From: Thermoplasmata archaeon
Lineage (GTDB): Archaea > Thermoplasmatota > E2 > JACPAO01 > JAHFTW01
DNA: 64,000 nucleotides
Reading direction: 5' to 3'
Assembly (NCBI GenBank): GCA_034667725.1
Contig: JAXDQS010000003.1
Location: 512,001-576,000 of the forward strand
Position numbers and translations under genes: made by a program. How positions within the stretch are numbered: the first letter of the stretch is position 1; each line of letters begins with the position of its first letter. Below the pieces are notes generated by a model. It had not been told where the DNA came from, did no database searches, and was given only the letters and a program-made list of their open reading frames with translations. Below are positions 5,510-38,427 of this stretch, piece by piece.

Positions 5510-5741
5510 CCGCGTGATGGAGGGCCGCAGCGCAGCGGAGGCCCCCTCCCTAGCAACATGCCGGCTGGGTTCGCAGCCGACAGGATGCCCATCGTGGCGG
5601 ACCTTGCGTTGAAGATGGGCTTGTAGCCGCGTGATGGAGGGCCGCAGCGCAGCGGAGGCCCTCCCTGGCAACATGCCGGCTGGGTTCGCAGCCGACAGGA
5701 TGCCGATCGTGGCCGACCTCGCCCTGAAGATGGGCCTGGAG
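5463..5741 (+). repeat. Tandem array of the DUF4870-like gene 3' end plus hairpin insert (117-bp and 115-bp units and a third tail copy)
   Basis: Units start at 5463, 5580 and 5695. Each tail encodes RMPIVADLALKMGL. The 27-bp motif is at 5553-5579 and 5668-5694. Confidence 0.95.
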
Positions 5742-5797
5742 CCCGTCTGGCGGCTTTGGCAAACCTTATGGAAGCGCCCTAGGCATCGTCGTCGTCC

Positions 5798-6871
5798 ATG
5801 AAGGCCGTCCCCGTGCTGCTCCTGCTGCTGGCCACGACCTTCAGCGGCTGCCTCGGCGGCGAGGCGCGCACCGAGTGGGCCTTCGAGGTCACCCAGCTTG
5901 CCACCTTGGCCGACCAGGGCCGCAGCGGCAAGGGCGTGGTGGTGGCCATCCTCGACACCGGCATCAACCGCGAGCACGCCGCGCTGGAGCACCTGTTCGA
6001 CGGCGACCTGGAGAACGGCGAGGTCACCCACTTCCAGGACTTCCTGGGCACCGACCAAGGCCCCGCCAAAGCGTTCGACCGGGACGGCCACGGTTCGCAC
6101 GTGGCGGGCGTCCTGGCCGCCTCCGGCAGCACCCTCGGCGACAAGCTGGTCTACGGCGGCGTCGACCTGCGCGGCGGCGCCCCCGGCATCCGGCTCATGG
6201 TCGCGCGGGTGTGCGGCGAGGCCGCCTGCGACGGCAACGCCATCGTGCGCGCCGTCGACTGGGCCGCCGCCAACGGCGCCCAGGTCCTGTCGTTGAGCCT
6301 GGGCCGCCAGGCCAGCAGCTCGGTCCTGCCCGTCCAGCTCCAGGACGCGATGGAGTCCGCCATCAACCGCGCCATCGACCGCGGCATCGTGGTGGTCGCC
6401 TCCGCCGGCAACGACGGCCCGGGCAACACCGACGTCGGCAGCCCCGCCAGCATCCCGCGCGTCATCGCGGTCGGTGCCATCCAGGAGGACGGCAGCGTGT
6501 GGGCGTCCTCCAGCCGGGGCGACGACGCCACCAACCCGTGCCGCACCATCCCCGTCGTGGGATCGCAGGGCCGCTGCAAGCCCAACCAGAAGCCCGAGCT
6601 GGTCGCCCCCGGCGTCGACATCCTGTCGTCCTGGACCGACGACTCCTACGCCCGCGCCTCCGGCACCAGCCAGGCCACGCCGTTCGTGACCGCCGCCGTC
6701 GCCCTCATGCTGGAAGGCCACGGCCGCCTCACCGACGCCGACGACGTGGCCCGCGTCAAGAAGGTCCTCGTCGACACCGCCCAGCCGGTCGCCGACCAGG
6801 CCATGCCGCACGACGAAGGGGCCGGCTACGGCCTCGTGCAGGCGCTCGCGGCGGTCAACGCCTACCGTTAG
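5798..6871 (+). CDS. Subtilisin-like S8 serine protease, lipoprotein
   Basis: Lipobox-like FSGC. Catalytic triad motifs ILDTGI, HGSHVAG, GTSQATP, plus SAGN. Confidence 0.93.
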   Translation: MKAVPVLLLLLATTFSGCLGGEARTEWAFEVTQLATLADQGRSGKGVVVAILDTGINREHAALEHLFDGDLENGEVTHFQDFLGTDQGPAKAFDRDGHGSHVAGVLAASGSTLGDKLVYGGVDLRGGAPGIRLMVARVCGEAACDGNAIVRAVDWAAANGAQVLSLSLGRQASSSVLPVQLQDAMESAINRAIDRGIVVVASAGNDGPGNTDVGSPASIPRVIAVGAIQEDGSVWASSSRGDDATNPCRTIPVVGSQGRCKPNQKPELVAPGVDILSSWTDDSYARASGTSQATPFVTAAVALMLEGHGRLTDADDVARVKKVLVDTAQPVADQAMPHDEGAGYGLVQALAAVNAYR

Positions 6872-7821
6872 CCGCCGTGCGGGCCTTGGGTCTCCAGCCA
6901 CCGCTCCGCGTCGATGGCCGCCTTGCAGCCCGAGCCGGCCGCCGTGATGGCCTGCTTGTAGCGGTGGTCGTAGACGTCGCCGGCCACGAACACGCCCTCC
7001 ACCGAAGTGTAGGTGTCGTACTGGCCCTCCTGCACGATGTAGCCGCCCTCATCGAGGCGCAGCTGGCCCCGGAACAGCCCCGTGTTGGGCACGTGGCCGA
7101 TGGCGCTGAAGTAGCCCTGCGTCGCCATCTCCTCGGCCTTGCCCGTCGCCAGGCTGCGGATGCGGACGCCCGTGACCGACTCGGTGCCCAAGAGCTCCTC
7201 GATGACGGTGTTCCACAGGATGCGAATCTTGGGGTGCTCCATGGCGCGGGCGGCCATGATCTTGGAGGCGCGGAACGAGTCGCGGCGGTGGATGATGGTG
7301 ACCTTGGTGGCGAACTTGGTCAAGAACAGCGCCTCCTCCATCGCCGAGTCGCCGCCGCCCACCACCACGACCTCCTTCTCCTTGAAGAAGAAGCCATCGC
7401 AGGTGGCGCACGCGGACACGCCCTTGCCGCGCAGCCGGGTCTCGGACGGGAGGCCCAGCCACTTCGCGGTGCTGCCGGTGGCCACGATGACGGCGCGCGC
7501 CTCGTGCGTCCCCGAGCTGCTCGTGACCTTGAAGGGGCGGTGCATGAAGTCGACGGCGGTGGCGTCCTCGTCGCGGAACTCCGCCCCGAAGCGGATCGCC
7601 TGCTTGCGCATCTGCTCCATCAGGTTGGGCCCGGTGACGGCGTGCTCGAAGCCCGGGAAGTTCTCCACGTCGGAGGTGATCATGAGCTGCCCGCCCGCCT
7701 CGAAGCCGGCCACCACCAGGGTCTTGAGGTTGGCGCGGGCCGCGTAGATGGCGGCGGTGCAGCCGGCGGGTCCGGAGCCGATGATGAGGATGTCCCAGGG
7801 CTTCTGCACGGTCGGCGCCAC
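6868..7821 (-). CDS. trxB: Thioredoxin reductase
   Basis: IIGSGPAG, CATCDG, VVGGGDSAMEEA, GVFVAGD. Start is GTG 7821 or 7809. Confidence 0.96.
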   Translation of the reverse strand: MAPTVQKPWDILIIGSGPAGCTAAIYAARANLKTLVVAGFEAGGQLMITSDVENFPGFEHAVTGPNLMEQMRKQAIRFGAEFRDEDATAVDFMHRPFKVTSSSGTHEARAVIVATGSTAKWLGLPSETRLRGKGVSACATCDGFFFKEKEVVVVGGGDSAMEEALFLTKFATKVTIIHRRDSFRASKIMAARAMEHPKIRILWNTVIEELLGTESVTGVRIRSLATGKAEEMATQGYFSAIGHVPNTGLFRGQLRLDEGGYIVQEGQYDTYTSVEGVFVAGDVYDHRYKQAITAAGSGCKAAIDAERWLETQGPHGG

Positions 7822-7869
7822 CGGAGGCGGCTTGATGGGCGTTGGGGTTGGTTTGGGCCTGGGGGCCAA

Positions 7870-7929
7870 ACCACGGATCGCACGGATTTCACGGAAACCT
7901 TCGTCCGTGGAATCCGTGCGATCCGTGGT
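7870..7929. repeat. 9-bp-periodic CACGGA/TCCGTG palindromic element, copy 2
   Basis: accacggatcgcacggatttcacgga-aaccttcg-tccgtggaatccgtgcgatccgtggt, between divergent trxB and metG. Confidence 0.92.
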
Positions 7930-7991
7930 CGGACCCGCTGGGCGCAGCCCACGCGGTGTCCTCAAGAACACGCCCCCGCCTCCCCGTCCGC

Positions 7992-10079
7992 TTGAAGCCG
8001 CCCATCTACATCGGGGTCGCCTGGCCGTACGCCAACGGCCCCCTGCACCTCGGCCACGTCGCCGGCTCGCTGCTGCCGCCGGACATCTTCCGCCGCGCCA
8101 TGCGGATGATGGGCCACGACGTGCTGATGGTCTCCGGCTCCGACTGCCACGGCACGCCCATCATGATCCAGGCCGAGAAGGCAGGGACGACCCCGGCCGA
8201 GGTGGTGGCGCACTTCCACGCCGACCATGTCCGGGCCTTGGAGCGGCTGGGCGTCGGCTTCGACCTGTTCACGACCACGACGACGCCGAACCACCGCGAC
8301 TGGGTGCAGCAGGTGTTCTTGGCGTGCCGCGAGATGGGCTACATCGAGAAGCGCACCTCGGCGGCGCCGTTCGACGCGATGGCCAACCGGTTCCTGCCCG
8401 ACCGCTACGTCGAGGGCACCTGCCCGCACTGCGGCGACAAGGGGGCCCGGGGCGACCAGTGCGACGCCTGCGGCAAGACGCTGGACCCGAAGGACCTGCA
8501 GAACCCGCGCAGCAAGCTCGACCCGACGCACCCCGTCACGTTCCGCGACACCGAGCACTTCTTCTTCCTGCTGTCGAAGCTGCAGCCGGCGCTGGAGAAG
8601 TACGTGGCGCGCACGGGCGGCCATTGGCGCTCCAACACCATCCACTTCACGCAGAACTGGCTGAAGGAGGGCTTGCAGGACCGGGCCATCACGCGCGATT
8701 TGACCTGGGGCATCCCGATCCCCGAGGCGGGCTACGACGACAAGCGCATCTACGTCTGGTTCGAGGCGGTGTGCGGCTACCTGACGGCGAGCATCGAGTG
8801 GGCGGCCCGCAGCGGCAAGCCGGACGCCTGGAAGCGCTACTGGACCGACCCCGCCGCGAAGGCGTACTACTTCCTCGGCAAGGACAACATCCCGTTCCAC
8901 ACCATCATCTGGCCCGCCATCCTGCTCGCGTTCAACGAGGCGCGGGCGAAGAAGGGCGAGAAGCCGCTGAACCTGCCGTTCGACGTGCCCGCCAACGAGT
9001 TCCTCAACCTCTCCGGCCTCAAGTTCTCCAAGTCGCAAGGCGTCGGCATCGGCGTCCACGAGGTGCTCGACCGCTTCCAGCCGGACGCCGTGCGCTACTA
9101 CCTCAGCATCAACATGCCCGAGGGCAAGGACGCCGACTGGACCTGGGAGGACTTCGGCAGCAAGGTCAACGACGAACTCGTCGGCACCCTGGGCAACCTG
9201 TTCCACCGCGTGCTGTCGTTCACCCACAAGAACGTCGGCCGCATCCCCAACGACCCCGAGCCGCACGACAAGCTGGACGCCAAGGTGCGCGAGGCCATCG
9301 CGGCCACCGGCGAGGAGCTGGCCCTCCACCTCTCGACCGTCAACCTCCGCAAGGGGATGCGACGCGTGATGGAGCTCGCCATCCAGGGCAACCAGTGGAT
9401 GCAGGAGGCGCAGCCGTGGGCCCGCTTCAAGACCCACCGCGAGGAGGCCGAGGACAACCTGCACTCGCTGCTTCGCCTGTGCAAGGCGCTCGCCGTCTAC
9501 ATGGCGCCCTACCTGCCGCACGCCGCCGAGGAGGCCTGGCGGATGCTCGGCGAGCAGGGCAGCGTCCACGCCCAGCCGTGGTCCGCCGCCCAGGCGCCGC
9601 TCCAGGCCGGCCAGGCGCTCCAGGAGCCCAAGGCGCTGTTCGTCAAGCTGGAGCCCGAACTGGTCGCGCAACTGGCCGGGCCTGCGCCCGCCGCCGCGCC
9701 CACGGCCGCCAAGGCCCCGCCGAAGCCCACCGCCATCGCGACCCCGCCGCACGGCACCGTGACCATCGACGACTTCGCCCGGCTGCACATCCGGCTCGCC
9801 AAGGTGGTCGCCGTCGAGGACCACCCGAAGGCGGACAAGCTCTACGTGCTCCGCCTCGACGCGGGGGAGCTGGGCCCGCGCCAAGTGGTCGCCGGCCTCA
9901 AGGCGCACTACAAGCCCGAGGAGCTCGTGGGCAAGACCGTCGCGTTCCTGGCCAACCTCCAGCCCGCCATGCTGCGCGGCGTCGAGTCGCAAGGCATGGT
10001 GCTGGCCGCCGACGACGGCACCCTCGTGGGCGTGCTGCGGCCCGACCGCGAGCTTCCCGCCGGCTCGAAGGTGCGGTAG
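7992..10079 (+). CDS. metG: Methionine--tRNA ligase with C-terminal tRNA-binding domain
   Basis: AWPYANGPLHLGH, Zn knuckle CPHC..CDAC, YVWFEA, KFSKS, C-terminal Trbp111-like domain. TTG start assumed. Confidence 0.96.
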   Translation: MKPPIYIGVAWPYANGPLHLGHVAGSLLPPDIFRRAMRMMGHDVLMVSGSDCHGTPIMIQAEKAGTTPAEVVAHFHADHVRALERLGVGFDLFTTTTTPNHRDWVQQVFLACREMGYIEKRTSAAPFDAMANRFLPDRYVEGTCPHCGDKGARGDQCDACGKTLDPKDLQNPRSKLDPTHPVTFRDTEHFFFLLSKLQPALEKYVARTGGHWRSNTIHFTQNWLKEGLQDRAITRDLTWGIPIPEAGYDDKRIYVWFEAVCGYLTASIEWAARSGKPDAWKRYWTDPAAKAYYFLGKDNIPFHTIIWPAILLAFNEARAKKGEKPLNLPFDVPANEFLNLSGLKFSKSQGVGIGVHEVLDRFQPDAVRYYLSINMPEGKDADWTWEDFGSKVNDELVGTLGNLFHRVLSFTHKNVGRIPNDPEPHDKLDAKVREAIAATGEELALHLSTVNLRKGMRRVMELAIQGNQWMQEAQPWARFKTHREEAEDNLHSLLRLCKALAVYMAPYLPHAAEEAWRMLGEQGSVHAQPWSAAQAPLQAGQALQEPKALFVKLEPELVAQLAGPAPAAAPTAAKAPPKPTAIATPPHGTVTIDDFARLHIRLAKVVAVEDHPKADKLYVLRLDAGELGPRQVVAGLKAHYKPEELVGKTVAFLANLQPAMLRGVESQGMVLAADDGTLVGVLRPDRELPAGSKVR

Positions 10080-10129
10080 CCGCCGAACCCGCTCGCAGCC
10101 TCTTTGAGCACGCAGGCGCATCGACGGGC

Positions 10130-10600
10130 GTGCGGCTGCTTGCCCTCCTCGCCCTCGGCCTGTTCCTGCTGCCCGGATGCACGACCGACGAGGACGTCAG
10201 CGACGCCCAGAAGCTCCTGGACCAAGCCAAGCTGGCGACCGGCCAAGGCACCGAGGACGTCCAGTTCACCATGAACGTCACGGCCGCCGCCATCGTGCCC
10301 GGCCGCTGCTTCGACGGCGCCACCTCCTTCGGCGACGAGTGCCACCTCCTCGACGTCACCCTCAACCTGACCAAGGCCAAGCGCGACCTCGACCTCTGGC
10401 ACGGTTGGAGGGGCTTCACCCAGGCCGGCCTTGGCATCCCCAGCTTCGCCGAGGGCGGCCAGGTCGCCGCCGCCGGGCGCATCGTGCAGGTGCAGATGCG
10501 CTTCGAGATGGACGCGGGCACCGCCGAACGCCTGGTGGAGCTGCAGCACAAGGGGGACTGGGGGCCGACGTACACCACGGCCGCGGTGCCCGCCTACTGA
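10130..10600 (+). CDS. Putative lipoprotein
   Basis: Hydrophobic leader ending LLPGC. GTG start. Confidence 0.7.
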   Translation: MRLLALLALGLFLLPGCTTDEDVSDAQKLLDQAKLATGQGTEDVQFTMNVTAAAIVPGRCFDGATSFGDECHLLDVTLNLTKAKRDLDLWHGWRGFTQAGLGIPSFAEGGQVAAAGRIVQVQMRFEMDAGTAERLVELQHKGDWGPTYTTAAVPAY

Positions 10601-10611
10601 TCCAACTAGGG

Positions 10612-11265
10612 TCAAAGGCACGACTGGACGTGCCGCACGCTCGCCGCGACGCTGCGCGCCGCCGCCTCGCCCTCGACGCTGGGCCCATGCCCGCAGTGCA
10701 GCGCCCGCACCGGCAGCTTGCCCAGGCGCAGGATGCTCTCCGCCTCCAGCCTCAGCTCGGAGTCGGGGAAGTCGAAGCGCCCGATGCCGCCCTCCGCGAA
10801 CAGGGTGTCGCCCGAGAACAGCGTGCCCGTGCCTTCGTGCCAGTAGCACGCGCTGCCAGGGCAGTGGCCGGGCGTCTCCAGCACGCTGAACGCGGCGCCG
10901 CCCAGCTCGATCGAGTCGCCGTCGCCCACCACGTCGTCCACCAGAATCTGGACGATACGGCCGCCGAACATCTCGGAGGTCGGGTCGCGGCCCTCCGCGA
11001 GCTTCATGGCGGCGCGGCGGCTGGCCACGACGCGGGCCCCCAGCGCCTTGTAATGCGGGAGGCCGTTGACATGGTCCAGGTGCTCGTGCGTGACCGCCAC
11101 GCTGCGGACGCGCTTCGGGTCGGTGACAGCGCGCACCTCCTCCAGCACGCGCGCGAAGTCGAGGCCATGGCCGGCGTCCACCATGTCGAAGGCGTTCGAC
11201 TTCGGGTCCTTGACGAGGAACTGGTTGCAGTCCCAGCCGCGGCCGCCCAAGCGCAACACCTTCAT
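10612..11265 (-). CDS. Metallo-beta-lactamase-fold hydrolase
   Basis: THEHLDH, TPGH, LFSGD, CGHG. Confidence 0.92.
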   Translation of the reverse strand: MKVLRLGGRGWDCNQFLVKDPKSNAFDMVDAGHGLDFARVLEEVRAVTDPKRVRSVAVTHEHLDHVNGLPHYKALGARVVASRRAAMKLAEGRDPTSEMFGGRIVQILVDDVVGDGDSIELGGAAFSVLETPGHCPGSACYWHEGTGTLFSGDTLFAEGGIGRFDFPDSELRLEAESILRLGKLPVRALHCGHGPSVEGEAAARSVAASVRHVQSCL

Positions 11266-12359
11266 GGCGCCGCCTCCGCCGTGGGCGCCAGCGTCGCCGC
11301 CCGGTCGGCCGCGCGCGCGATGGCGTCGAGCACGCCGCCCGCGGGCGCCAGCAGGCGCGCGGGGACGGCGGCGTGCGCGAACCCTTCCGCCAGGCCGAGG
11401 CGCTCCATGGCCGCGAACGCGCCGCCGTGCAGGTCGGCGTGGGCGCGCCGGGCCTGCGCCGCGATGGCGGGGAACGGCTCGGGGCCGCCCGCCCGCAGCG
11501 CCTCGCCGACGGCGGCGACCGCCGTGCGGCCGGCGGCGAGGGCCGCGCCCGTCGCGCGCACCAGCTCGCGCGCAAGCGGCGGCGTGTCCGGGAGGGCCAT
11601 GCGGCGGGCCAGCTCCTGCGGCGGGTAGGCCAAATCGGCGCGCGCGACGCCGTGGCCTTCGAGGACCGCCTCGGCGACCGCCATGGCCTTGCGGCCGGCG
11701 TCGTGCAGCTCGGCGGCCATGAGGTCCAGCAACTGGAAGTCGCTGACGTTCTCCAGCGGCAGCTCGAGGGTGGCGACCAGGCGCAGGGCTTGCAGGTAGA
11801 GGCGGGACAGGTCCTCCTCGTGCATGGCCACCAGGATGCGGGCGTCCTGGGCGACGCGCTCGGGGTGGGCGCCGTAGGCCTCGACGCAGTCGGCGGCCAG
11901 CTCCAGCATGTCGCCGAGGCGGGACGCCATCATCTGCAGCAGGTCGGTGCCGCTGCTGAACGGCGCGGGCAGGTTGTTCTGGAGGCGGAACCCGATGGCC
12001 GCGGGCGCGACCCGGGCCTGGATGCGCTCGTCGAGGTGGCGCAGGAACTCGCGGGCGGCGGCGACGCAGTCGGGCCCGAACTTGCCGGCGGCCGGCGCGA
12101 GCGACAGCTCGTTGGCGCCGCGGACGTAGCCCGCCGCCAGCCGCGCGCACACGGCCTTCGGGTCGGCGGGCGTCGTGGCCTGGTAGCGGCGCTCGCGCAC
12201 GACGGGGACCACCAGCAGGCTGCCGCCGATGACGTGCAGGTCCACCTCGCGGCCCTTCTGCTGCTCCGGGTCCCAGCCGTCGATCCACTTCTTGGGCAGG
12301 TAGATCGAGTACGCGCCGCTGCCGACCTGGGTGACCCGCTTGCGCTTCAGGGCCTGCAC
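11262..12359 (-). CDS. AbrB/MazE-type DNA-binding plus PhoU-like regulator
   Basis: N-terminal KRVTQVGSGAYSIYLPKKW is typical of archaeal AbrB-PhoU regulators. The rest is helical. Confidence 0.75.
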   Translation of the reverse strand: MQALKRKRVTQVGSGAYSIYLPKKWIDGWDPEQQKGREVDLHVIGGSLLVVPVVRERRYQATTPADPKAVCARLAAGYVRGANELSLAPAAGKFGPDCVAAAREFLRHLDERIQARVAPAAIGFRLQNNLPAPFSSGTDLLQMMASRLGDMLELAADCVEAYGAHPERVAQDARILVAMHEEDLSRLYLQALRLVATLELPLENVSDFQLLDLMAAELHDAGRKAMAVAEAVLEGHGVARADLAYPPQELARRMALPDTPPLARELVRATGAALAAGRTAVAAVGEALRAGGPEPFPAIAAQARRAHADLHGGAFAAMERLGLAEGFAHAAVPARLLAPAGGVLDAIARAADRAATLAPTAEAAP

Positions 12360-12406
12360 GCCTTTGCCATGGGCGGCGCCATTTAGGAGCCCGCCTATGC
12401 CGCCCC

Positions 12407-13027
12407 ATGGACAAGGACGCGGCCGAGGCCTACCTGCAACGCCTCGCACCCTCGAAGGGCGTGTTGGCGCAGATGCAGGCCCGCGGCGAGGGCGCCGGCT
12501 TCCCCATCATCGGGCCACTTGTGGGATCCCTGTGCGCCCAATGGGCCCAAGCCGTCGGGGCCCGCCGGGTGTTCGAGATGGGCTCCGGCTTCGGCTACTC
12601 CACCGCGTTCTTCGCCAAGGCGGTCGGGCCGGAGGGCGTCGTCGTCCACACCGAGGACTCCGACGAACTGCAGGCCGAGGCGAAGGAGTGGCTGGGCCGG
12701 CTGCGGCTCAGGTCCCGCGTCGAGTTCGAGCCGGGCAACGCCATCGAGACGCTGCGCCGCCGCAAGGGCGCCTGGGACGTGGTGTTCATCGACATCGAGA
12801 AGGAGGACTACCCCCAAGCATGGGAGGTCGCGCGCCACCGCGTCCGCACAGGCGGCGTCATCGTGACCGACAACACGCTCTGGCAAGGCAAGGTGTGGGA
12901 CCCGAAGGCGAAGGACGCCCAGACCCGTGGCGTGCGGGAATACACCCGGCTGGCGTTCGAGGACGAAGGGTTCGCGACCACGATCGTGCCGTTGCGGGAC
13001 GGGGTGGCGGTGTCGTTGCGGCTCTAG
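12407..13027 (+). CDS. SAM-dependent O-methyltransferase
   Basis: FEMGSGFGYS, VFIDIEKEDY, VTDNTLWQG. Confidence 0.92.
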   Translation: MDKDAAEAYLQRLAPSKGVLAQMQARGEGAGFPIIGPLVGSLCAQWAQAVGARRVFEMGSGFGYSTAFFAKAVGPEGVVVHTEDSDELQAEAKEWLGRLRLRSRVEFEPGNAIETLRRRKGAWDVVFIDIEKEDYPQAWEVARHRVRTGGVIVTDNTLWQGKVWDPKAKDAQTRGVREYTRLAFEDEGFATTIVPLRDGVAVSLRL

Positions 13028-13683
13028 GGCAGCTTCCCGCCCGGCCCAAAGCTCCGCAGCGTCATCGCGAACCGCTGCACCGTCGTGAGCGCCCCCACCA
13101 CCGCGAAGTATGCCATCACCAACTCCAGGAAGTTGGTCGCGCGCCCAAGGACCATCAAGGGGCCGCCGTTCCATTCGCTCCAGCCGAACTGGATGAGCGG
13201 CAGGAACAAGAGGAGGACCATGCGGTCGGCGCGGCCGAGCCAGCCGCCGTAGTTGCGCTTCAACCCGACGGCTTGCGCCTGCGTGCCCATGTAGCTCGTG
13301 AGCAGCGTGAAGCCCACCGCGAGCAGGCCGATCCAAGGTGTTGGCGACCACGGGCTGAGGGCGATGCCGACCAGGAAGGCGGTGTCGCTGAACCGGTCGA
13401 TGGCGTGGTCGAGGAAGTCGCCGCGCGGGGTCGCCTGGTTGGTGAGCTTGGCGACCTTGCCGTCCAAGAGGTCGAGGATGGAGTTGAGCCCGACGCAGGC
13501 CCAGGCCGCCAGCAGCACCGCGCGGCCCGCGTAGCCCGGCGACGAGGCCCAGAACAGCACGCCGCCGAGGATGGCCACCGCCAAACTGAGCCAGGTGAAG
13601 ACGTCGGGGTGGACACGGCGGACCACGTGGGTCAGGGGGTCGAGCCACCAGTCGAGGACGCGGCGGTGTCTGTCCAGGACCAT
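13024..13683 (-). CDS. CDP-alcohol phosphatidyltransferase (archaetidylinositol-phosphate synthase-like)
   Basis: DLLDGKVAK...GDFLDHAIDRFSD signature. Confidence 0.92.
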   Translation of the reverse strand: MVLDRHRRVLDWWLDPLTHVVRRVHPDVFTWLSLAVAILGGVLFWASSPGYAGRAVLLAAWACVGLNSILDLLDGKVAKLTNQATPRGDFLDHAIDRFSDTAFLVGIALSPWSPTPWIGLLAVGFTLLTSYMGTQAQAVGLKRNYGGWLGRADRMVLLLFLPLIQFGWSEWNGGPLMVLGRATNFLELVMAYFAVVGALTTVQRFAMTLRSFGPGGKLP

Positions 13684-13687
13684 GGGC

Positions 13688-14206
13688 TCACCGGATGGGG
13701 AGCTGGCCGCTCCAGTCGACCGGCTCCAGGTCGGGGGCTTTCAAGGCGTCGAGCCGCACGTCGGCAAACGCCGCAAACACTTCGGCGGCGTTTCGTCGCG
13801 TGCCGTCCCGCTGCACGACCCGAGGGGTCGCGTCGAGCGCCTCCTGCAAAATCAGGTCGAGCGCCTCGGCCTCCAGGTTCTCGTGGACCTTGGCGGGGCC
13901 GTAGCCGCGCAGCTGGAGGCGGCCGCGCAGCACGGCAGGGTCGCAGCGCAGCACCCAGGCCGCGTCGAGGCCAAGGAGGTGGCTCAAGTGGCCTTCGACG
14001 AGGCAGTCGGCCGGCAGCCCGCGGCGTTGGCGGCGCAGCAGGGCCACGTCGATGGCGTCCGCCTGGTCGGTGGGGTCGTGGCCGGCCACGGCGCCAACGG
14101 CGCGGGCCCACGCCTTGAGGTCGACGACGGCCCAGCCGTGCCGGGCCGCCTCGGCGGCGACCGTGGTCTTGCCGACGCCCGGCGTGCCGGTGAGGGCGAC
14201 GCGCAT
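13688..14206 (-). CDS. Adenylate kinase, archaeal AK6/Fap7 family
   Basis: LTGTPGVGKTT, VEGHLSH, RGY..AKVHEN.EAE. Confidence 0.88.
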   Translation of the reverse strand: MRVALTGTPGVGKTTVAAEAARHGWAVVDLKAWARAVGAVAGHDPTDQADAIDVALLRRQRRGLPADCLVEGHLSHLLGLDAAWVLRCDPAVLRGRLQLRGYGPAKVHENLEAEALDLILQEALDATPRVVQRDGTRRNAAEVFAAFADVRLDALKAPDLEPVDWSGQLPIR

Positions 14207-15525: not shown

Positions 15526-15582
15526 GCCCGCGCGAGCGGCTGGGTGGTGAAAAGCGAAGTGGGGCCCGCCGTTGGGAGGCGC

Positions 15583-26834: not shown

Positions 26835-26837
26835 GAT

Positions 26838-26877
26838 GCGTGAACCAAAGTTCATGCGTTGCACGGGCACCCTTAAA
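26838..26877 (+). promoter_or_regulatory. Candidate operator palindrome and TATA-like box of the 2-oxoacid dehydrogenase operon
   Basis: GCGTGAAC-caaa-GTTCATGC at 26838-26857. CTTAAA at 26872-26877, about 32 nt before ATG 26909. Confidence 0.4.
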
Positions 26878-26908
26878 CCGGTGCTTTGGCTGCCTGCGCC
26901 CGAGCCGG

Positions 26909-28000: not shown

Positions 28001-28053
28001 TGCGCATCCCCCAGCCGGCCCTCGACCTCGCCCCTCCCCAGGAGGCCCCCTGA

Positions 28054-28286
28054 ATGCCCCCCAAGACCCCGAAGCTCGACCTGACCACCTGGAACGCCGG
28101 CTCGATCGCCTTCCTGGTGCTGTCCCTGGCCAACGGCGTCCTGCTGGGCCTCGGCATCGCCGTCGGCGCCTGGTGGATGGTGGCCTTCCTGATGCAATGG
28201 CCGGTCGCCCTCGCCATCGGCGCGCACCTCGGCCACGTCAAGCTCGAAGGGTCCCCCCGCCAGCCCACTGGACCGGAGGCCGCCTG

Positions 28287-28287
<1 letters not shown>
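28054..28287 (+). CDS. Small 2-TM membrane protein inserted between E1 alpha and E1 beta
   Basis: 77 aa, GGAGG RBS, stop overlaps the pdhB start (TGATG). Confidence 0.65.
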
Positions 28288-29261
<974 letters not shown>

Positions 29262-29274
29262 GGCGGTGCGACCC

Positions 29275-30648
29275 GTGTTCAAGTTCAAGCTCCCCGACAT
29301 CGGCGAAGGCATCCAGGAAGGCGAGATCGTCCGCTGGATCAAGAAGGAAGGCGAGGCCGTCAAGGAGGACGAGCCGTTCGTCGAGGTCATGACCGACAAG
29401 GCGACGGTGGAGCTCACGAGCCCCCGCAAGGGCACCATCGCCAAGCACCACGTCGCCGAGGGCCAGATGGCCAAGGTCGGCCAGGTCATCGTCGAGATCC
29501 TCGAGTCGGGCGACGCGCCGGCCGGAAAAGCCTCCGAGGCCCCCGCCGGCCCGGCCCCGAAGGTCGCGGAGAACACCCCGTCCAAGGCGCCGGAGGCCAA
29601 GGAGGAGAAGACGCTGTTCGAGCTGCCCAAGGAGATCGCGGCGGCGACCAAGGTCATCGAGCGCAAGGGTGCTGCGGCCCAGGCGCCCGCCACCCCGAGC
29701 GCGTCGAGCGCGCCCAGCGTGCCCGCCGGCCACAAGGCGACGGCGGCGCCGGCGGTGCGCAAGAAGGCCCGCGAGCTCGGCCTCGACATCAACCAGGTGC
29801 GGGGGACCGGCCAGAACGGCCGCGTCACGGTGGAGGACCTGCAACGCTTCGGGTCGGCCCCGACGGCGCCCGCCGCGCAGCCGGCGGCGCCCGCGGGCGG
29901 CGCGCGCTTCAGCTACGCGGACGTGCGCTACTCGCAGGACCCGAGCCGCGAGGAGCGGGTGCCGCTGCGCGGGCTGCGGCGCACCATCAGCAAGGCAATG
30001 GAGCGCAGCAAGTTCACGGCGACCCACTTCACCTACGTGGCCGAGGTCGACTGCGACAACCTGGTGGCGCTGCGTGACGCGGCCAAGAACGTGGCGGACG
30101 CGCGCGGCGTCAAGCTGACGTTCCTGCCGTTCATCGTCAAGGCGGCCGTGGCGGCGCTGAAGCGGCACCCGGACGTCAACGTGGCGTTCGACGAGACCAC
30201 GGCGGAGATCGTGCGCAAGAAGTACTGGCACATCGGCATCGCGACGGCGACGGACGCGGGCCTCATCGTGCCGGTGCTGCGCGACGCCGACCGCAAAGGC
30301 GTCTTGGAGATCGCGCGCGAGATCCAGGACCTGAGCGAACGGACCAAGGCCGGCAAGGCCAAGCCGGAGGAATTGAGCGGCTCCACCTTCACCATCACGA
30401 GCCTGGGCAAGATGGGCGGCCTGCTCGCGACACCGATCCTGAACTACCCCGAGGTCGCCATCATGGGCGTCCACGAGATGAAGCAGGTGCCGGTCGTCAA
30501 GGACGGGCAGATCGCGATCGGGTGGCGGATGAACCTGAGCTTCTCGTTCGACCACCGCATCGTGGACGGCTACAACGGCGCGCTGTTCGCCAACACGCTG
30601 CTGTCTTACCTCGAAGACCCCCAGTTGCTGCTGCTGGAGTCGCTCTAG
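29275..30648 (+). CDS. pdhC: Dihydrolipoamide acyltransferase E2
   Basis: Lipoyl domain EVMTDKA, E3-binding APAVRKKARE, catalytic FDHRIVDG. Confidence 0.95.
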   Translation: MFKFKLPDIGEGIQEGEIVRWIKKEGEAVKEDEPFVEVMTDKATVELTSPRKGTIAKHHVAEGQMAKVGQVIVEILESGDAPAGKASEAPAGPAPKVAENTPSKAPEAKEEKTLFELPKEIAAATKVIERKGAAAQAPATPSASSAPSVPAGHKATAAPAVRKKARELGLDINQVRGTGQNGRVTVEDLQRFGSAPTAPAAQPAAPAGGARFSYADVRYSQDPSREERVPLRGLRRTISKAMERSKFTATHFTYVAEVDCDNLVALRDAAKNVADARGVKLTFLPFIVKAAVAALKRHPDVNVAFDETTAEIVRKKYWHIGIATATDAGLIVPVLRDADRKGVLEIAREIQDLSERTKAGKAKPEELSGSTFTITSLGKMGGLLATPILNYPEVAIMGVHEMKQVPVVKDGQIAIGWRMNLSFSFDHRIVDGYNGALFANTLLSYLEDPQLLLLESL

Positions 30649-30649
30649 C

Positions 30650-32110
<1,461 letters not shown>

Positions 32111-32165
32111 GGCTTTCGAGAACCCGCCCGGAACCGCTTTGCCGCCGGCTCCCCGCTGGGACCGC

Positions 32166-32654
32166 ATGGCCCCTACAACCCGGCCCGCCTTTGCCCTGCT
32201 CGCGACCGCCCTCACGGCCTTCGCCGTGACCCCCGCGGCGGACGCCTTCAACGCCTACAACGCCATCGCCGCCGTGGACGGCTACGACTGGGGCTGCGGC
32301 GGCATCGCGCCCACCGACCTCTCCTGCAGCGACGGCAACCGCGACATCGGGAGCATCCTCGACCTCGAGGTCCAGTTCTGCCCCGTCACCCTCGTCTCCC
32401 CGGTCCACGTCTGCCCCGCCGCCGACCAGTGGTTCCAAGGCGTCGTCACCGTGAAGGTCACCACCGACACCGGCTACTGGAGCAAGACCTGCACCATCTC
32501 CGTCACCATCCCCGGCCGGAGCTGCACCGAGCACAAGGGCGCCGTGTACGTCGGCCAGCTCGGCACCCTGACGGGATCGGTCCAGGCCACCTGCGGCGCA
32601 TGCCCCGCCGGCCTGCCGGTGGGCTACTGGCGCGCGGCGGCCTACACCCGGTGA
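32166..32654 (+). CDS. Secreted Cys-rich hypothetical protein
   Basis: Signal peptide ending ADA. 8 Cys in the mature part. Confidence 0.72.
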   Translation: MAPTTRPAFALLATALTAFAVTPAADAFNAYNAIAAVDGYDWGCGGIAPTDLSCSDGNRDIGSILDLEVQFCPVTLVSPVHVCPAADQWFQGVVTVKVTTDTGYWSKTCTISVTIPGRSCTEHKGAVYVGQLGTLTGSVQATCGACPAGLPVGYWRAAAYTR

Positions 32655-32704
32655 GCGGTCCCCGCAGCGACAAGGGATTATCCCGACCTGTTCCTACGGG
32701 GCGC

Positions 32705-33544
32705 GTGTCAGGCGGGGAGGCGCTGGTCATCGAGGGCGGCGGCATGAAGTCCGCCTACGCCAACGGCGTCCTGTCCGCCTTCGAGGAGGCCGGCCACGCC
32801 CCGTGGGGCACGGTCTACGGCACCTCCGCCGGCGGCGCCCTGGCCGCGTGGTACGGCGCCGGGCAGGCCCGCGTGGCCGAGCGCACCTGGGCATACGCGC
32901 AGGACCGCCGCGTCCTCGACTACCGCCGCCTGGCGCGCGGCCGCCCCATCCTCGACCACGAGCTGCTGTGGGAGGTCGTCTACCGTCAGGAGACGGTGCT
33001 CGACCAGTGGGCGCTCCGGAAGGCGGCGTGGCCGGTCATCGTGACGGCGGCCGAGGTCGAGACGGGCGCCTGCCGCTACGTCGACCTGCGCACCGCCGAC
33101 GACCCGATCGCTTGGCTCAAGGCGACCGGCCGGCTGCCGTGGGGCGCCGGCAAGCCGGTCGAGATCGCGGGCAAGCACTACCTCGACGGCGGCATCGTCG
33201 ACCCCATCCCGGTCGGCAAGGCGATCGCGGACGGCCACCACCATGTCACGGTCCTGCTGAACTGGCCGGCGGGGGTCGTGCGCAAGGACAGCAAGCTCCT
33301 GGGGCGCATGGTGGCGCGCCGCTACCCGATGCTGCGCCACGGCGTGCTGCACCATGCCGCGCTCAAGCAGGAGGCCGCCGAGCTTGCGGAGCACCCGCCC
33401 GCCGGCGTGCGGGTCGACGTCATCCGGCCGTCGCGGCCGACCGGGCTGCACCGCCTCAGCCGGGGCCTCGCGGCCATCGACGCCGCCATCGAGCAGGGCC
33501 GCGCCGACGGCGTCGCGCACCTGGAGCGGCTGCGCGAAGCGTAG
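32705..33544 (+). CDS. Patatin-like phospholipase
   Basis: EGGGMK, GTSAG, YLDGG. Confidence 0.9.
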   Translation: MSGGEALVIEGGGMKSAYANGVLSAFEEAGHAPWGTVYGTSAGGALAAWYGAGQARVAERTWAYAQDRRVLDYRRLARGRPILDHELLWEVVYRQETVLDQWALRKAAWPVIVTAAEVETGACRYVDLRTADDPIAWLKATGRLPWGAGKPVEIAGKHYLDGGIVDPIPVGKAIADGHHHVTVLLNWPAGVVRKDSKLLGRMVARRYPMLRHGVLHHAALKQEAAELAEHPPAGVRVDVIRPSRPTGLHRLSRGLAAIDAAIEQGRADGVAHLERLREA

Positions 33545-33549
33545 GCCGT

Positions 33550-33565
33550 TGTCCCGTTTCGGACA
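33550..33565. promoter_or_regulatory. Candidate arginine-regulon operator upstream of argC
   Basis: TGTCCCGTTTCGGACA, 12/16 identical to 39050-39065. Confidence 0.5.
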
Positions 33566-33639
33566 CGCTTGCCCAGGCCTGCCCCTCCGTCGCCATCATG
33601 GCTATCTTCCCGGCCATGTGGATAGGGGTTGTCTCCGCC

Positions 33640-34620
33640 ATGGTGGACATTGCCGTCCTCGGCGCCCGGGGTTACCTGGGCCGTGAACTCGTCCGCATCC
33701 TGCTCGCCCACCCCAACGTGGACGGCCTGCATCTCGTGACCTCCAGCGAGGCCGGCAAGCCCTACGGCGAATCGGTGCCCGCCTTCCGCCACCGCCGCGA
33801 CCTTGTCCTTGCCGGCCCCGAGGCCGCCCGCGACGCCGACGTCGTGTTCCTCGCCACCGACAGCGACGAGGCCCGCAAGCACGCCCCCACCTTCGCGGCC
33901 GACCAGACCGTCATCGACCTCAGCCGCGCCCACCGCGCCGAGGCCCTCGCCGGCGGCTCGCCCTGGACCTACGGCCTGAGCGAGCTGTTCCCCGTCCCCA
34001 AGGGCGCCAAGCGCATCGCCAACCCCGGCTGCTACCCCACCGCCACCATGCTGGCCGCGGCCCCCGCCCTCAAGGCCGGCTTCGCGGCCCCCGGCGTGCT
34101 CATCAGCGACGGCAAGTCCGGCGTCTCCGGCGCCGGCGCCACCCCGCGCGGCGACCTGCATTACCCCGAGGCCAACGAGGCCGTCCGCGCCTACAAGGTC
34201 CTCGGCCACGACCACCTCGCCGAGATTCGCGCCATCGCCGCCCGCGTCGAGGGCAAGGCCGCCGTCCCCCGTGCCGTCCGCTTCACGCCCCACCTGGTGC
34301 CCCAGAACCGCGGCCTGCTGGCCACCGTGTACCTGCCCACCAAGGCCACCGACGCGGCTGCCGTCAAGGACGCCTACAAGGCGGCCTACCAGGATGCCGC
34401 CTTCGTGCGCATGGTGCCCGAGCCCGACACGGGCCACGTCCGGGGCAGCAACTTCGCCGACCTCGCCATCGACCTCGACGCCGACAGCGGCCTGCTGGTC
34501 GCCCGCGGCGCCATCGACAACCTGGTCAAGGGCGGCAGCGGCGCCGCCGTCCAGAACATGAACCTCAGCCTCGGCCTCCCGGTCGCCTCCGGCCTGGCCC
34601 ACGTCGGAGGCGGTCCCTGA
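33640..34620 (+). CDS. argC: N-acetyl-gamma-glutamyl-phosphate reductase
   Basis: LGARGYLG, IANPGCYPT, SGVSGAG, IDNLVKG.SG.AVQNMN. Confidence 0.94.
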   Translation: MVDIAVLGARGYLGRELVRILLAHPNVDGLHLVTSSEAGKPYGESVPAFRHRRDLVLAGPEAARDADVVFLATDSDEARKHAPTFAADQTVIDLSRAHRAEALAGGSPWTYGLSELFPVPKGAKRIANPGCYPTATMLAAAPALKAGFAAPGVLISDGKSGVSGAGATPRGDLHYPEANEAVRAYKVLGHDHLAEIRAIAARVEGKAAVPRAVRFTPHLVPQNRGLLATVYLPTKATDAAAVKDAYKAAYQDAAFVRMVPEPDTGHVRGSNFADLAIDLDADSGLLVARGAIDNLVKGGSGAAVQNMNLSLGLPVASGLAHVGGGP

Positions 34621-35945
34621 TGGTCCTCCTGGGCTGGCGTCGCACGGTCGCCAAGCTGCAAGGCCAGGACGTCGGCGCCCCCGCGCCGGCCCCCTCCGCC
34701 GACGGGGCCGCCACGGGCGCCGCGTGGTCGGTGCGCATCGTCCCCGACCGCCACCTGAACCACGTCGCCGGCTTCCGCGCCAACGGCGTCTGGGCCCAGA
34801 TCAAGAAGAAGAGCCGCGACGTCTGCCTCATCGTGAGCGACCGCCCCGCCAAGGGTGCTGCCGTGTTCACCCAGAACGCCTTCTGCGCCGCCCCCGTCGT
34901 GGTGAGCCGCGAGCACGTCGAGAACGGCGACGTCCGCGCCATCGTGTGCAACGCCGGCAACGCCAACGCCGTCACCGGCGAGCAGGGCCTCAAGGACGCC
35001 CGCGCCATGGCCAAGGTCGCCGCCGAGGCGCTCGGCCTCACGCCCGACCAGTTCATCGTGTGCAGCACCGGCATCATCGGCCGCCCCATGCCGATGGACA
35101 AGGTCGAGGCCGGCATCCGCGAATGCGCCCGCACCCTGGGCGACGCCGTCGGCGGCGAGGCCGCGGAGGCCATCACCACCACCGACTCGCACCCGAAGCA
35201 CGTCTTCGTCGAGGTCAAGGCCGGCAAGCGCACCTTCCACGTCGCGGGCATCGCCAAGGGCGCCGGCATGATCCATCCCAACATGGCCACCATGCTGTCG
35301 TTCCTGGTCACCGACGCGCCCATCCCGACCAGCCTGCTGGATGCCAGCCTGCGCGCCGCCGTGGACGCCACCTTCAACATGATCACCATCGACGGCGACC
35401 AGTCCACCAACGACACCTGCGCCATCATCGCCAACGGCGCCGCCGGCGGCCCGAACCTGCGCCGCGGCACCCCCGAGATGGAGGCGTTCCAGGCCGGCCT
35501 CACCACCGCCTGCAAGGTCCTCGCCAAGCACATCGCCGGCGACGGCGAGGGCGCCACCGCCCTCCTGGAGGTCCACGTCGACGGCGCCAGCACCTTGGCC
35601 GACGCCCGGACCATCGCCCGCGCCGTCTGCAAGTCCAACCTGGTCAAGTCTGCCCTGCACGGCAAGGACCCCAACTGGGGCCGCATCGTCGCCGCCGTCG
35701 GCGCCTGCGGGGCCAACGTCGACCCCGGCCGCGTCAGCGTCCGCTTCGAGTCCGTCCTGGGCTCCGTGCCGGTCCTCGACAAGGGCGAGCCCCTCAGCGA
35801 CCGCCTTAAGGACGCCAACGCGGTTCTCCAGACCAGGGACGTCCGTATCCTCGTCAGCCTCGGCCTCGGCCCCCACAGCGCGGAAGCCTGGGGCTGCGAC
35901 CTGAGCGAGGAGTACGTCACGTTCAACTCCGCCTACACGACGTGA
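34620..35945 (+). CDS. argJ: Ornithine acetyltransferase
   Basis: NAGNANA.TG, STGIIG, KGAGMIHPNMATML, STND, DGEGAT, DPNWGR. Confidence 0.96.
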   Translation: MVLLGWRRTVAKLQGQDVGAPAPAPSADGAATGAAWSVRIVPDRHLNHVAGFRANGVWAQIKKKSRDVCLIVSDRPAKGAAVFTQNAFCAAPVVVSREHVENGDVRAIVCNAGNANAVTGEQGLKDARAMAKVAAEALGLTPDQFIVCSTGIIGRPMPMDKVEAGIRECARTLGDAVGGEAAEAITTTDSHPKHVFVEVKAGKRTFHVAGIAKGAGMIHPNMATMLSFLVTDAPIPTSLLDASLRAAVDATFNMITIDGDQSTNDTCAIIANGAAGGPNLRRGTPEMEAFQAGLTTACKVLAKHIAGDGEGATALLEVHVDGASTLADARTIARAVCKSNLVKSALHGKDPNWGRIVAAVGACGANVDPGRVSVRFESVLGSVPVLDKGEPLSDRLKDANAVLQTRDVRILVSLGLGPHSAEAWGCDLSEEYVTFNSAYTT

Positions 35946-36763
35946 CCATGCGCTCCTCCGCCCTCTCGCAATCCCCCGTCACGGCGCCCGGCCTGCGGGT
36001 CGTGCTCAAGCTCGGCGGCAACGTCGTGCTCGACCCAGCCCAAGTGGCCGTCGTCGCCGCCGAGCTGCGCGCCCTGGTGGGCCGCGGCGCCCGCGTCACC
36101 ATCGTCCACGGCGGCGGGCCCCAGCTCGACAAGGCGCTCGCCGGCCTGGGCGAGAAGGCCGAGAAGGTCGACGGCCTCCGCGTCACCAGCCCCGCGGCCG
36201 CCGCCGTCGTCCACCAAGTGATGGACGGCATCGGCGCCGAGCTGGCCGACCGGCTGCGCGCCGCCGGCATGCCCGTCAAGCACGTCGCCGCCTCGCCCAC
36301 GGTCCTTCAGGCCCGCCTCAAGCGCGCCGCCAAGGGCGACCTCGGCCGCGTCGGCACCGTCGAGCGCTTCGCCACCTCCGCCCTGCCGCTGGCCGGCGTC
36401 GCGGTCGTGACGCCCGTCGGCTTCGACCCCGACGGCCCGCTCAACGTCAACGCCGACGAAGGCGCCGCCGCAGTCGCCGCGGCGCTGCGGGCCGACTGGC
36501 TCGTGCTCGGCACCGACGTCGCCGCCGTGCGCGGCGAGGCCGGCGAGTCGCTCGGCCACCTCGACGCCAAAGGGGCCGCGGCGCTCGTGGCCTCCGGCGT
36601 CGCGAAGGGCGGCATGATCCCCAAGCTCGCCGCCGCCACCGACGCGCTGCGGCACGGCGTCCGCAACGTCCTCATCGTCAAGGTCCAGCCCGGCACCCTC
36701 GTCGGGGTGCTGCTGGAGGGACGCCCGGAAGGCACCCGCGTCTCGCCCATGGTTTCCGCATGA
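35942..36763 (+). CDS. argB: Acetylglutamate kinase
   Basis: LKLGG, VHGGGPQ, DGLRVT, NVNAD, GGMIPK. Confidence 0.92.
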   Translation: MTMRSSALSQSPVTAPGLRVVLKLGGNVVLDPAQVAVVAAELRALVGRGARVTIVHGGGPQLDKALAGLGEKAEKVDGLRVTSPAAAAVVHQVMDGIGAELADRLRAAGMPVKHVAASPTVLQARLKRAAKGDLGRVGTVERFATSALPLAGVAVVTPVGFDPDGPLNVNADEGAAAVAAALRADWLVLGTDVAAVRGEAGESLGHLDAKGAAALVASGVAKGGMIPKLAAATDALRHGVRNVLIVKVQPGTLVGVLLEGRPEGTRVSPMVSA

Positions 36764-37950
36764 CCTACTCGCCCGCCCGCTGGGAGGCCGTGATGGCCCC
36801 CAACTACCCCACGCCCGCGATCCAGCTCGAAAAAGGCCAAGGCGCCACCGTCTGGGACTCCGAAGGCCGCGTCTACACCGACCTCTTGGCCGGCATCGCC
36901 GTCAACATCCTGGGCCACGCCCACCCGGCCCTGGTGCGCGCCGTCAGCACCCAGGTCGCGCTGCTCGCGCACACCTCGAACCTGTACGCCAACGCCCCCA
37001 ACATGCGCCTCGCCGAACGGCTGCAGGCCCGCACCCACGCCGGTCACAAGGTCATCTTCCAGAACTCCGGCACCGAGGCTAACGAGGCCGCCTTGAAGCT
37101 GGTGCGCCGCCACGCGCACGCCAAGGGCATGCCGGACGCCGTCGTCGTCGCGTTCCACAACTCGTTCCACGGCCGCACCTCCGGCGCCGTCAAGCTCACC
37201 GGCCAGGCCCACTACCAGGAAGGCTTCACGCCATTGCCCGAGCAGGTCGTCCACGTCCCCTTCAACGACCCCGCCGTGCTGGAGCAGGCGTTCGCCCAGC
37301 ACAAGGTCGCCGGCGTGTTCTTCGAGGCCGTCCAAGGCGAAGGCGGCGTGCTGCCCATCACCAAGGACGCCGCGGCCACGATGGCGCGGCTCTGCAAGCA
37401 GCACGACGCGGTGCTGGTCGCCGACGAGATCCAGACCGGCGTCGGCCGCACGGGGAGGTTCTTCGGCTACGAGCACGACGGCCTGGAGCCCGACGTCGTG
37501 ACGCTCGCCAAGGGGCTCGGCGGCGGCCTGCCCATCGGCGCCGCCCTCATCCACCCCAAGTTCGCCCCGCTGCTGCCCAGCGGCGCGCATGGGACGACGT
37601 TCGGCGGCAACGCCGTCTGCTGCGCCGCCGGCAACGCCGTGCTGGACGTCCTGGAGCAGGACGGCCTGGTCGCCCGCGCGCAGGCGTTGGGACGCACCTT
37701 CACGAACGCCTTGGGCGAGGCCGGCTTGCAGGCCCGCGGCCGCGGCCTGCTGCTCGGCGTGCCGCTGCCGGGGCCGCAGGCGCCTGACGTCGTGAAGGCG
37801 ATGCGCGAGGCCGGCTACCTGGTCGGGCAGGCCGGCAAGACGGTGGTGCGGATCGCGCCGCCCTTGACGATCTCCGAGAAGCAGCTGGTGGGCGCGGTGC
37901 CGCACTTGGCGAAGGCCGTGCAGGCGCTGCCGGCGGCCAGCCCGGCTTGA
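36760..37950 (+). CDS. argD: Acetylornithine aminotransferase
   Basis: NSGTEANE, FHGRT, DEIQTG.GRTG, TLAKGLGGG, HGTTFGGN. Confidence 0.94.
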   Translation: MTYSPARWEAVMAPNYPTPAIQLEKGQGATVWDSEGRVYTDLLAGIAVNILGHAHPALVRAVSTQVALLAHTSNLYANAPNMRLAERLQARTHAGHKVIFQNSGTEANEAALKLVRRHAHAKGMPDAVVVAFHNSFHGRTSGAVKLTGQAHYQEGFTPLPEQVVHVPFNDPAVLEQAFAQHKVAGVFFEAVQGEGGVLPITKDAAATMARLCKQHDAVLVADEIQTGVGRTGRFFGYEHDGLEPDVVTLAKGLGGGLPIGAALIHPKFAPLLPSGAHGTTFGGNAVCCAAGNAVLDVLEQDGLVARAQALGRTFTNALGEAGLQARGRGLLLGVPLPGPQAPDVVKAMREAGYLVGQAGKTVVRIAPPLTISEKQLVGAVPHLAKAVQALPAASPA

Positions 37951-38427
37951 TCAACGCCCGGCTGCAAACCCAGCCGGCATGTTGCATCGGTGGGCTTCGT
38001 TGCGCTCGACCCACACAGATTCCACAGACCTGACTTTGGTTCTGGCGGGGCCTAGCCAAAAAATTCCACAGACGTCTGTGGGAATCTTCTGAATCTGTGC
38101 GCATCAGTGCTCGTCGCGGGCCCGACTGGACACAGATTCCACAGACCTCTGCGAGAATCTTCCGAGTCTGGGTAAATCAGTGCCCGTCGGGTGACCGACG
38201 CACCTTAGCCTGAGGAATCAACCCGGCTTGATCAACCCGTTCAGCACCGCGAACGCATCGAACAAGTCCCCCTCCGGCTGCAAACCCAGCCGGCATGTTG
38301 GCCTGCCTCGCAGCTCCGCGCTCGGCAGGCCGGACGCCTCGCTTCGCATCGGCGGCGCTGACGCGCACCTTCATCCCGGCTTGATCAACCCGTTCAGCAC
38401 CGCGAACGCATCGAACAAATCTTCCTC
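37941..38427 (-). repeat. Three copies of the ACT-gene 3' end separated by two hairpin inserts, each ending in the 27-bp motif
   Basis: Tail copies at 38371-38427, 38218-38274 and 37941-37955. Motif (reverse complement) at 38275-38300 and 37959-37985. CACAGA/TCTGTG repeats at 38012-38190. Confidence 0.92.

Follow-up and report, generated by a model that had tools for sequence, protein, structure and literature searches.

The window analysed here, a 64,000-nucleotide stretch of a Thermoplasmata archaeon genome (contig JAXDQS010000003.1, positions 512,001 to 576,000), contains a 27-bp motif four times, at genes whose 3' ends are present in more than one copy. What is this motif, and why does it stand where a gene end has been duplicated? 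A preliminary description of the window proposed a recombination or cleavage end signal, like the hairpins of IS200/IS605 or REP elements. Our tentative answer, to which we give somewhat less than an even chance, is that non-coding, modular single-stranded DNA (ssDNA) elements form a family with the motif as their fixed 3' joining end, that a trans-acting enzyme acts at its hairpin, and that a captured flank guides insertion into a homologous empty allele. The source genome (G000) is a 2.32-Mb assembly of 71% GC that is 90% complete; the run that best covers its sequence is a soil metagenome.

As first described, the motif lies at 5553-5579 (+), 5668-5694 (+), 37959-37985 (-), and 38275-38301 (-). 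In the fourth copy the first G is replaced by C, hence the invariant core is 26 bp (38275-38300). None of 100 shuffled windows contains the motif, and 0 copies are expected. The motif is composed of an unpaired leader and an 18-nt hairpin. The offsets between the hairpin and the displaced tail copy at the four sites are 0, 0, 0, and ~3 nt, in agreement with the claim that the hairpin ends at, or within about 3 nt of, the displaced tail. Because the units at 5553 and 5668 are near-identical tandem copies, the four copies represent two loci and three independent inserts.

A scan of G000 finds six copies of the motif, all with the 6-bp stem; the next-best match has six mismatches. The two copies beyond the window (C3:626727 and C10:409434) are co-oriented with the upstream gene. 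No duplication is detectable at either of them (scores 7.2 and 7.6, both inside the null range), and the relatives reveal none. The motif had been said to stand always against a duplicated tail, which is true of four of four copies in the window but of four of six in the genome. Co-orientation holds for four of four and six of six copies, respectively. A motif unconnected with the duplications had been expected to lack tail copies at most sites and to show no orientation bias, which is not the pattern of these six copies. Compared with shuffled sequences, whole inserts fold no better (z 0.5 to -0.9), and the local hairpin alone stands out (z -2). Rfam gives no match, and the exact 26-mer was not found in genome, metagenome, and viral collections or in 60 relatives. 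Three metagenome matches to a 22-mer are read as chance, as their context is unrelated and holds no real match to G000 proteins. No RNA run is among those listed as containing the sequence.

The first host gene (5162-5509, +) encodes an intact 115-aa MamF/MmsF-like membrane protein; in 20 relatives the gene has one tail and lacks the insert. In the window, its 47-bp tail is present three times around two near-identical inserts (5463-5741). The functional, new tail (5463-5509, +) is synonymously recoded. It is followed by a 70-bp insert (5510-5579, +) made of a GNA-loop hairpin module and the first end motif (5553-5579, +), and the displaced tail begins at the base after the motif's hairpin. 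This second tail (5580-5626, +) has one synonymous difference from the functional tail, and leads into a 68-bp insert (5627-5694, +) that ends in the second motif copy (5668-5694). The oldest tail (5695-5741, +) has host-like codons and encodes the same peptide, with its stop codon decayed from TAG to GAG.

The second host gene (38371-39033, -) encodes an ACT-domain protein, and its tail is present as 57, 57, and ~19 bp around two different inserts (37940-38427). Downstream of the functional tail (38371-38427) lie a 96-bp insert of two hairpin modules and the end motif (38275-38370, -; core 38275-38300), the displaced 57-bp copy (38218-38274, -), an older 259-bp insert with the motif at its end (37959-38217, -; motif 37959-37985), and the oldest short remnant of the tail (37940-37958, -). 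An unrelated GxxExxY-type repeat is nested in the older insert at ~38013-38189. Over 99 bp, the insert at 38275 shares 94% identity with C10:409362-409460, and the 5553 and 5668 units are near-identical; the statement that the rest of each insert differs was therefore too strong. In the region 37936-37958, the oldest remnant overlaps the 3' end of a convergent class-III aminotransferase gene (36760-37950, +), and the present C-terminus (PG) appears to be derived from this overlap.

The same layout recurs throughout G000. Each end of the 2,151 called genes and of the tRNAs was compared with the DNA downstream. At a cut-off of 15, 40 of 2,198 ends score at least 15, as compared with 1 of 1,084 controls, and curation leaves ~35 gene ends (24 protein genes and 11 of 47 tRNAs). 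All of these have a new tail, a hairpin insert of 45-260 bp, and an old tail. The inserts are non-coding and are assembled from modules that recur at unrelated genes. Read by eye, their 5' ends differ among units and the 3' hairpin is the sole common end. The motif is not unique in this role, since other end hairpins do the same job. In particular, a second end hairpin, composed of a G-run, a GNA loop, and a C-run, has 26 copies in G000, ~15 of which are followed by a duplicate within 0-9 nt. One of them stands in the window at the class-II Asp/Asn tRNA synthetase gene (3513-3688, +), where an 80-bp insert (3561-3640) ending in this hairpin separates the new tail (3513-3560) from the old tail (3641-3688). 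About ten other units, including those at tRNA-Leu, secY, and a nusA-like gene, hold the reverse complement of the start of their own tail. The 27-mer units have no internal anti-tail pairing (p 0.2-1.0). Thus, ~35 gene ends have been rewritten in one 2.3-Mb archaeal genome by inserts that are invisible to standard annotation, and by sequence reading they include about a quarter of the tRNAs and core genes (DNA polymerase, secY, atpB, and tRNA synthetases).

Paired C-GNA-G loops number 76 on the element (sense) strand and 10 on the antisense strand, and all four bases occur at N. Such mini-hairpins are known to form exceptionally stable DNA structures (PMC13037366). Because they are strand-biased and stable as DNA, the working form of the element is probably ssDNA.

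The inserts are insertions. For each gene, 20 relatives have one tail and no such insert. In addition, an independent soil run (X2) contains a ~90%-identical relative with empty alleles, in which contigs join 5513 to 5741 and 3517 to 3646; these joints come from contigs only and were taken at 80% likeness, and Logan contigs cannot show circles or rare alleles. At the 3517/3646 joint the tail of the X2 relative matches the downstream copy, consistent with the downstream copy being ancestral.

New and old tails differ over 291 codons by 75 synonymous and 27 non-synonymous changes, whereas simple decay of the displaced copy would give ~44% synonymous changes (rough model, p about 1e-9). Rare codons make up 17.8% of the new tails, as compared with 11.9% of other gene ends (p=0.002) and 12.2% of the old copies. 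The excess fades to about background upstream of the junction. Because of the synonymous excess and the rare codons in the new tails, with the old copies near background, the functional tail is the odd copy and looks element-borne.

Relatives provide an independent view of the junction. In 800 kb examined of a same-genus genome (G004), 11 of 20 tRNAs and several protein genes have the same layout, and several of the units end in a sister motif (L208:1501-1522:-). The sister motif has in common with the 27-mer a CAA/ATG leader, an 8-nt spacing, a GTTYGCAG core, and a hairpin of 18 nt with CG at its borders; the stem is wired differently. A joint consensus of the two matches G000 six times, and all six matches are the motif. 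The stem is preserved by double changes in a variant from G022 and at the loop-closing pair; this covariation is limited evidence because the search pattern fixed the remaining pairs. With a relaxed motif pattern, the matches in five relatives are noise for the most part, apart from one true variant. Of the 31 family genomes, 11 carry the sister motif, with 53 copies among them; the 89 other class genomes and G000 have 0. In a sample of the phylum, a genome of another family outside the class sample (G212) has 11 copies. Eight other genomes of that family have none, a distribution that suggests horizontal spread.

Among the first 35 sister-motif copies, 21 have a duplicate, which begins at the base after the hairpin in 18 (offsets of 0-7 were allowed). 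In a larger, overlapping set of 55 copies, 27 have a duplicate of 16-129 bp that is 75-100% identical, 22 of them at the fixed junction; a few of the 27 are tandem self-copies or possibly chance. In the distant genome, 9 of the 11 copies show a duplication at an offset of 0-3 nt. No target consensus is found from -8 to +8. These results give strong, independent support to the proposed end signal, from which we infer the cleavage or joining itself. The targets are tails with a sense element, and gene or tRNA heads with an antisense element, including a recoded uvrA-like start (L215). Accordingly, the claim that the motif is always sense to its host gene stands for G000 but not for the relatives. 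In every case read, the hairpin touches the displaced copy and the gene body is on the opposite side.

The established layout is thus one end fixed at the last base of the leader and hairpin, a variable other end, and a target piece of 16-130 bp on both sides. The tentative reading given at the outset would account for it as follows. A trans-acting enzyme, which may be the host's own or a transient viral or plasmid one, would recognise the leader and hairpin on ssDNA and cut just after the hairpin. The released strand would extend back across the hairpin modules and include the adjoining gene end. This captured flank would pair with a homologous empty allele, either on a sister chromosome or in a different cell, and the 3' end of the hairpin would be joined to the displaced resident strand; the resident end would therefore be pushed aside, not replaced. 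A clonal donor would give exact duplicates, a donor with a longer history synonymously recoded ones, and repeated rounds would give arrays. Intragenic insertions would survive only where the copy extends past the stop (or start) codon. Copies without duplication, just outside genes, could be sources.

A broader proposition is possible but doubtful, namely that these are an undescribed class of gene-less ssDNA elements, in which a captured host flank of 16-130 bp picks the target, the hairpin end is cut and joined in trans, the matching gene end is rewritten, and the hairpin has moved between distant Thermoplasmatota lineages. If true, the elements would amount to a homology-programmable system of insertion whose signal is ~25 nt long, and to a compact ssDNA mechanism. 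In kind, the units are non-autonomous, hairpin-ended mobile DNA with replacement gene ends, of which the literature searched, with most subscription papers outside its coverage, holds no description. New here are the shared fixed end, the precision of the junction, and the patchy spread.

Several observations weigh against capture of a flank by an ssDNA element. No enzyme was found, and neither movement nor a circular intermediate was seen. About half of the copies are without duplication. The new tails encode the host's own peptide, and the donor must therefore be an unsampled close lineage. The old copies are more host-like at only 42 codons, as compared with 25 for the reverse. The first 1-9 nt of the displaced copy are often altered. 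The tRNA-Ser and tRNA-Met junctions shared among species (given below), the latter with a displaced copy that has one mutation in common, could simply have been inherited. Finally, exact duplicates fit ordinary target-site duplication equally well.

This last point leads to the alternative that survives best, a true long target-site duplication. The hairpin end would be joined at a nick, and strand displacement or a staggered second nick would copy 16-130 bp of the recipient; divergence would come later, and the enrichment at gene ends would reflect selection alone. The exact duplicates (46/46, 39/39, 55/55, and 129/129), the lack of a target consensus, and the presence of the same modules at unrelated genes are all as this explanation predicts. 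It also has precedents in Replitron-1, in IS1549/IS1634, and in target-primed insertion. Replitron-1 of Chlamydomonas (PMC10288648) has one precise end, a fuzzy end with parental flank, and variable target duplications, but it is eukaryotic and encodes a Rep, has short terminal direct repeats and an RG target, and is without recoded gene ends. IS1549/IS1634 make long, variable direct repeats of 8-514 bp (PMC2266710), but have a DDE transposase and two defined ends, and lack GNA-hairpin modules and recoding. Units of the present family have neither terminal inverted repeats nor two fixed ends, the features of miniature inverted-repeat transposable elements (MITEs) or of IS1634-type elements. 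We nevertheless regard target-site duplication as rather unlikely. The differences between tails are mainly synonymous and the displaced copy is host-like, the reverse of what decay of a dead copy would produce. In addition, the gene body is always opposite the hairpin in the cases read, half of the copies are without any duplication, and no reverse transcriptase, which a retroelement with target-primed insertion would need, is found in G000 or five relatives.

The recoded tails bring to mind fungal mitochondrial mobile open reading frames (ORFs), which in Allomyces macrogynus atp6 and in Glomus atp6, atp9, cox2, and nad3 place a foreign C-terminus ahead of the native one (PMC3630166). In the way they work, the present units are most like these gene hybrids. 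In both, a synonymously different C-terminus is in frame, the native C-terminus is displaced behind the insert, and the gene remains functional. The match in layout and recoding (PMC3630166) would suit stripped homing-endonuclease cassettes, in which the native gene end is cut, double-strand-break repair copies in an insert whose tail is recoded and resists cutting, and the gene for the nuclease is lost or acts in trans. Such an origin is nonetheless quite improbable. In the mitochondrial hybrids the insert includes a LAGLIDADG or GIY-YIG gene and the targets are single conserved genes, whereas here non-coding inserts of 45-260 bp, with a common terminal hairpin and no endonuclease ORF between the copies, are found at dozens of unrelated genes, tRNAs, and heads that have no common sequence. 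The only GIY-YIG protein in G000 is a 623-aa UvrC-type gene product, additional GIY-YIG matches (judged by short open frame) are mainly in motif-less genomes, with one read in a phage-like context in G004, and the GxxExxY nucleases occur in a single genus and have no target copies on their two sides.

Integrative elements that bring a replacement gene end include e14 and phage 21 in icd, and tRNA islands. Attachment-site scars of this type, with an integrase-driven island whose body was later deleted, would suit the 11 of 47 affected tRNAs and a unit in G004 with a 129-aa cargo ORF. As in these elements and in integron attC, the element restores the entered gene and, in some units, the 5' end pairs with a complement inside the unit; the ~10 units that fold the tail in this way are reminiscent of folded attP/attC. 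The explanation is very improbable all the same: the units are tiny and have many targets, no common core is present at the junctions, no integrase stands beside the copies whose neighbouring ORFs were read, the sole tyrosine integrase of G000 is tied to a rolling-circle element at tRNA-Pro, and the 27-mer units have no internal tail complement.

That the motif is a terminator or RNA-processing hairpin, with duplications arising passively by slippage or repair, is likewise very improbable. Most copies are sense and 3' of stop codons, and some are without duplication. However, a bacterial-type scan calls no terminator, a T-run is lacking, the loops are GNA triloops of the DNA type, and base-precise junctions, antisense head duplications, absence at orthologous sites, and identical copies in a distant genome are left unexplained.

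The kinship with IS200/IS605 or REP elements that had been proposed is not supported, and we do not count the motif elements as members. A hairpin at the element end, an ssDNA signature, and a preference for one strand are common to both. However, no Y1 HUH transposase (PF01797) is found in G000 or in five motif-rich relatives, and the units have no tetra- or pentanucleotide target, one defined end, and long duplications (16-129 bp), which HUH elements of this kind generally lack (PMC10288648). The GIY-YIG nuclease Ssn with its NTS/SRM repeats (PMC11893778) resembles the present system in the oriented unpaired leader and hairpin, in action on ssDNA, and in repeats throughout the genome. The cut made by Ssn is on the upstream side of the hairpin, the present junction on the downstream side. 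The SRM consensus has 0 matches in 46 units on either strand, and no Ssn-like small GIY-YIG protein is encoded beside the motif copies read, the one in G000 being of UvrC type. The text of the Ssn paper contains neither 'duplication' nor 'archaea' (PMC11893778).

Among the families searched, no partner gene was found, including the transposase or nuclease gene flanked by the motif that had been anticipated; the genomes are incomplete, and the absence of an enzyme is therefore not proven. Reverse transcriptase (PF00078) has 0 matches in G000 and 0 in the five relatives, and TnpB, IS110, and DUF559 have 0 in the G000 searches. An HNH search gives three matches. ORFs near 30 family loci and the 11 loci of G212 include no recurrent foreign protein. 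Possession of the motif by G212 provides a sharp comparative filter for enzyme candidates, and the short end signal, base-precise junctions, and stem-preserving variants define a substrate for finding the enzyme.

Two candidates were rejected. The first is an HUH-type Rep or rolling-circle origin. An integrated element at tRNA-Pro (L020:1012-6100 = C10:27011-32000) encodes a tyrosine integrase and a 359-aa HUH-type Rep-like protein without a Pfam match, which has ~50 homologues, the named ones labelled Thermoplasmatota. In G000 a hairpin similar to the motif is located 1 kb upstream of this Rep, but none is near Rep at 14 other loci. Rep and the motif are found together in 4 of 31 genomes, as compared with 2.5 expected. 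The second is the GxxExxY nuclease, for the two reasons given above. Each of the 12 relatives in the genus has its gene, with 1-8 matches, and the other genera of the family lack it. A second repeat family, with 91 core matches in G000, flanks the GxxExxY PD-(D/E)XK gene (C5:135449-135892), and a member of it is the repeat nested at 38013-38189 in the window. Four relatives have similar repeats behind the same ACT gene. A search of G000 for Phage_integrase finds one tyrosine recombinase and detects no XerA in this 90% complete assembly.

Units also occur in arrays of two to three or more at C5:34506-34990, C4:41080-41434, C7:52070-52390, C5:1-230 with C8:7390-7850, C2:63810-64080, C1:69310-69630, and C3:372750-373135. 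The hosts are tRNA-Leu (two genes), the nusA-like gene, secY, a coiled-coil gene, atpB, and tRNA-Gly. The majority of array inserts hold the reverse complement of their own tail, and a tRNA-Leu of G004 has the same design. Longer hairpin chains without duplication lie at C10:138273, C10:458027, C10:4861, C10:296546, C1:4704, and C6:11125; the last hairpin of each chain is only a few bases away from where a convergent gene has its stop codon. In addition, G000 has duplications of gene or tRNA starts, and of a promoter stretch, around inserts at C2:79234-79480, C6:65474-66283, C2:83564, and C11:32360-32490.

In the relatives, one junction is used across species at tRNA-Ser (L206, L234, and L278; three species) and at tRNA-Met (L210 and G004:C9:185542; two species). 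The 3' arm of the hairpin is similar to the stretch of tRNA-Ser/Leu that immediately precedes the T-loop, and could be derived from a tRNA fragment. The single viral match of the sister motif lies inside a 333-aa ORF and was set aside.

The 129-aa ORF of G004 (L191:16781-17167:-) lies inside a tail-duplicating unit and overlaps the stop codon of a proS-like gene. It resembles unnamed actinobacterial proteins, has no nuclease match, and is probably cargo. The additional GIY-YIG matches in short open frames are L106 (G028:C266), G031:C115, G017:C4, and G024:C14, and all four genomes are without the sister motif. L106 has an N-terminal Cys-rich part and is positioned upstream of a GMP-synthase-like gene.

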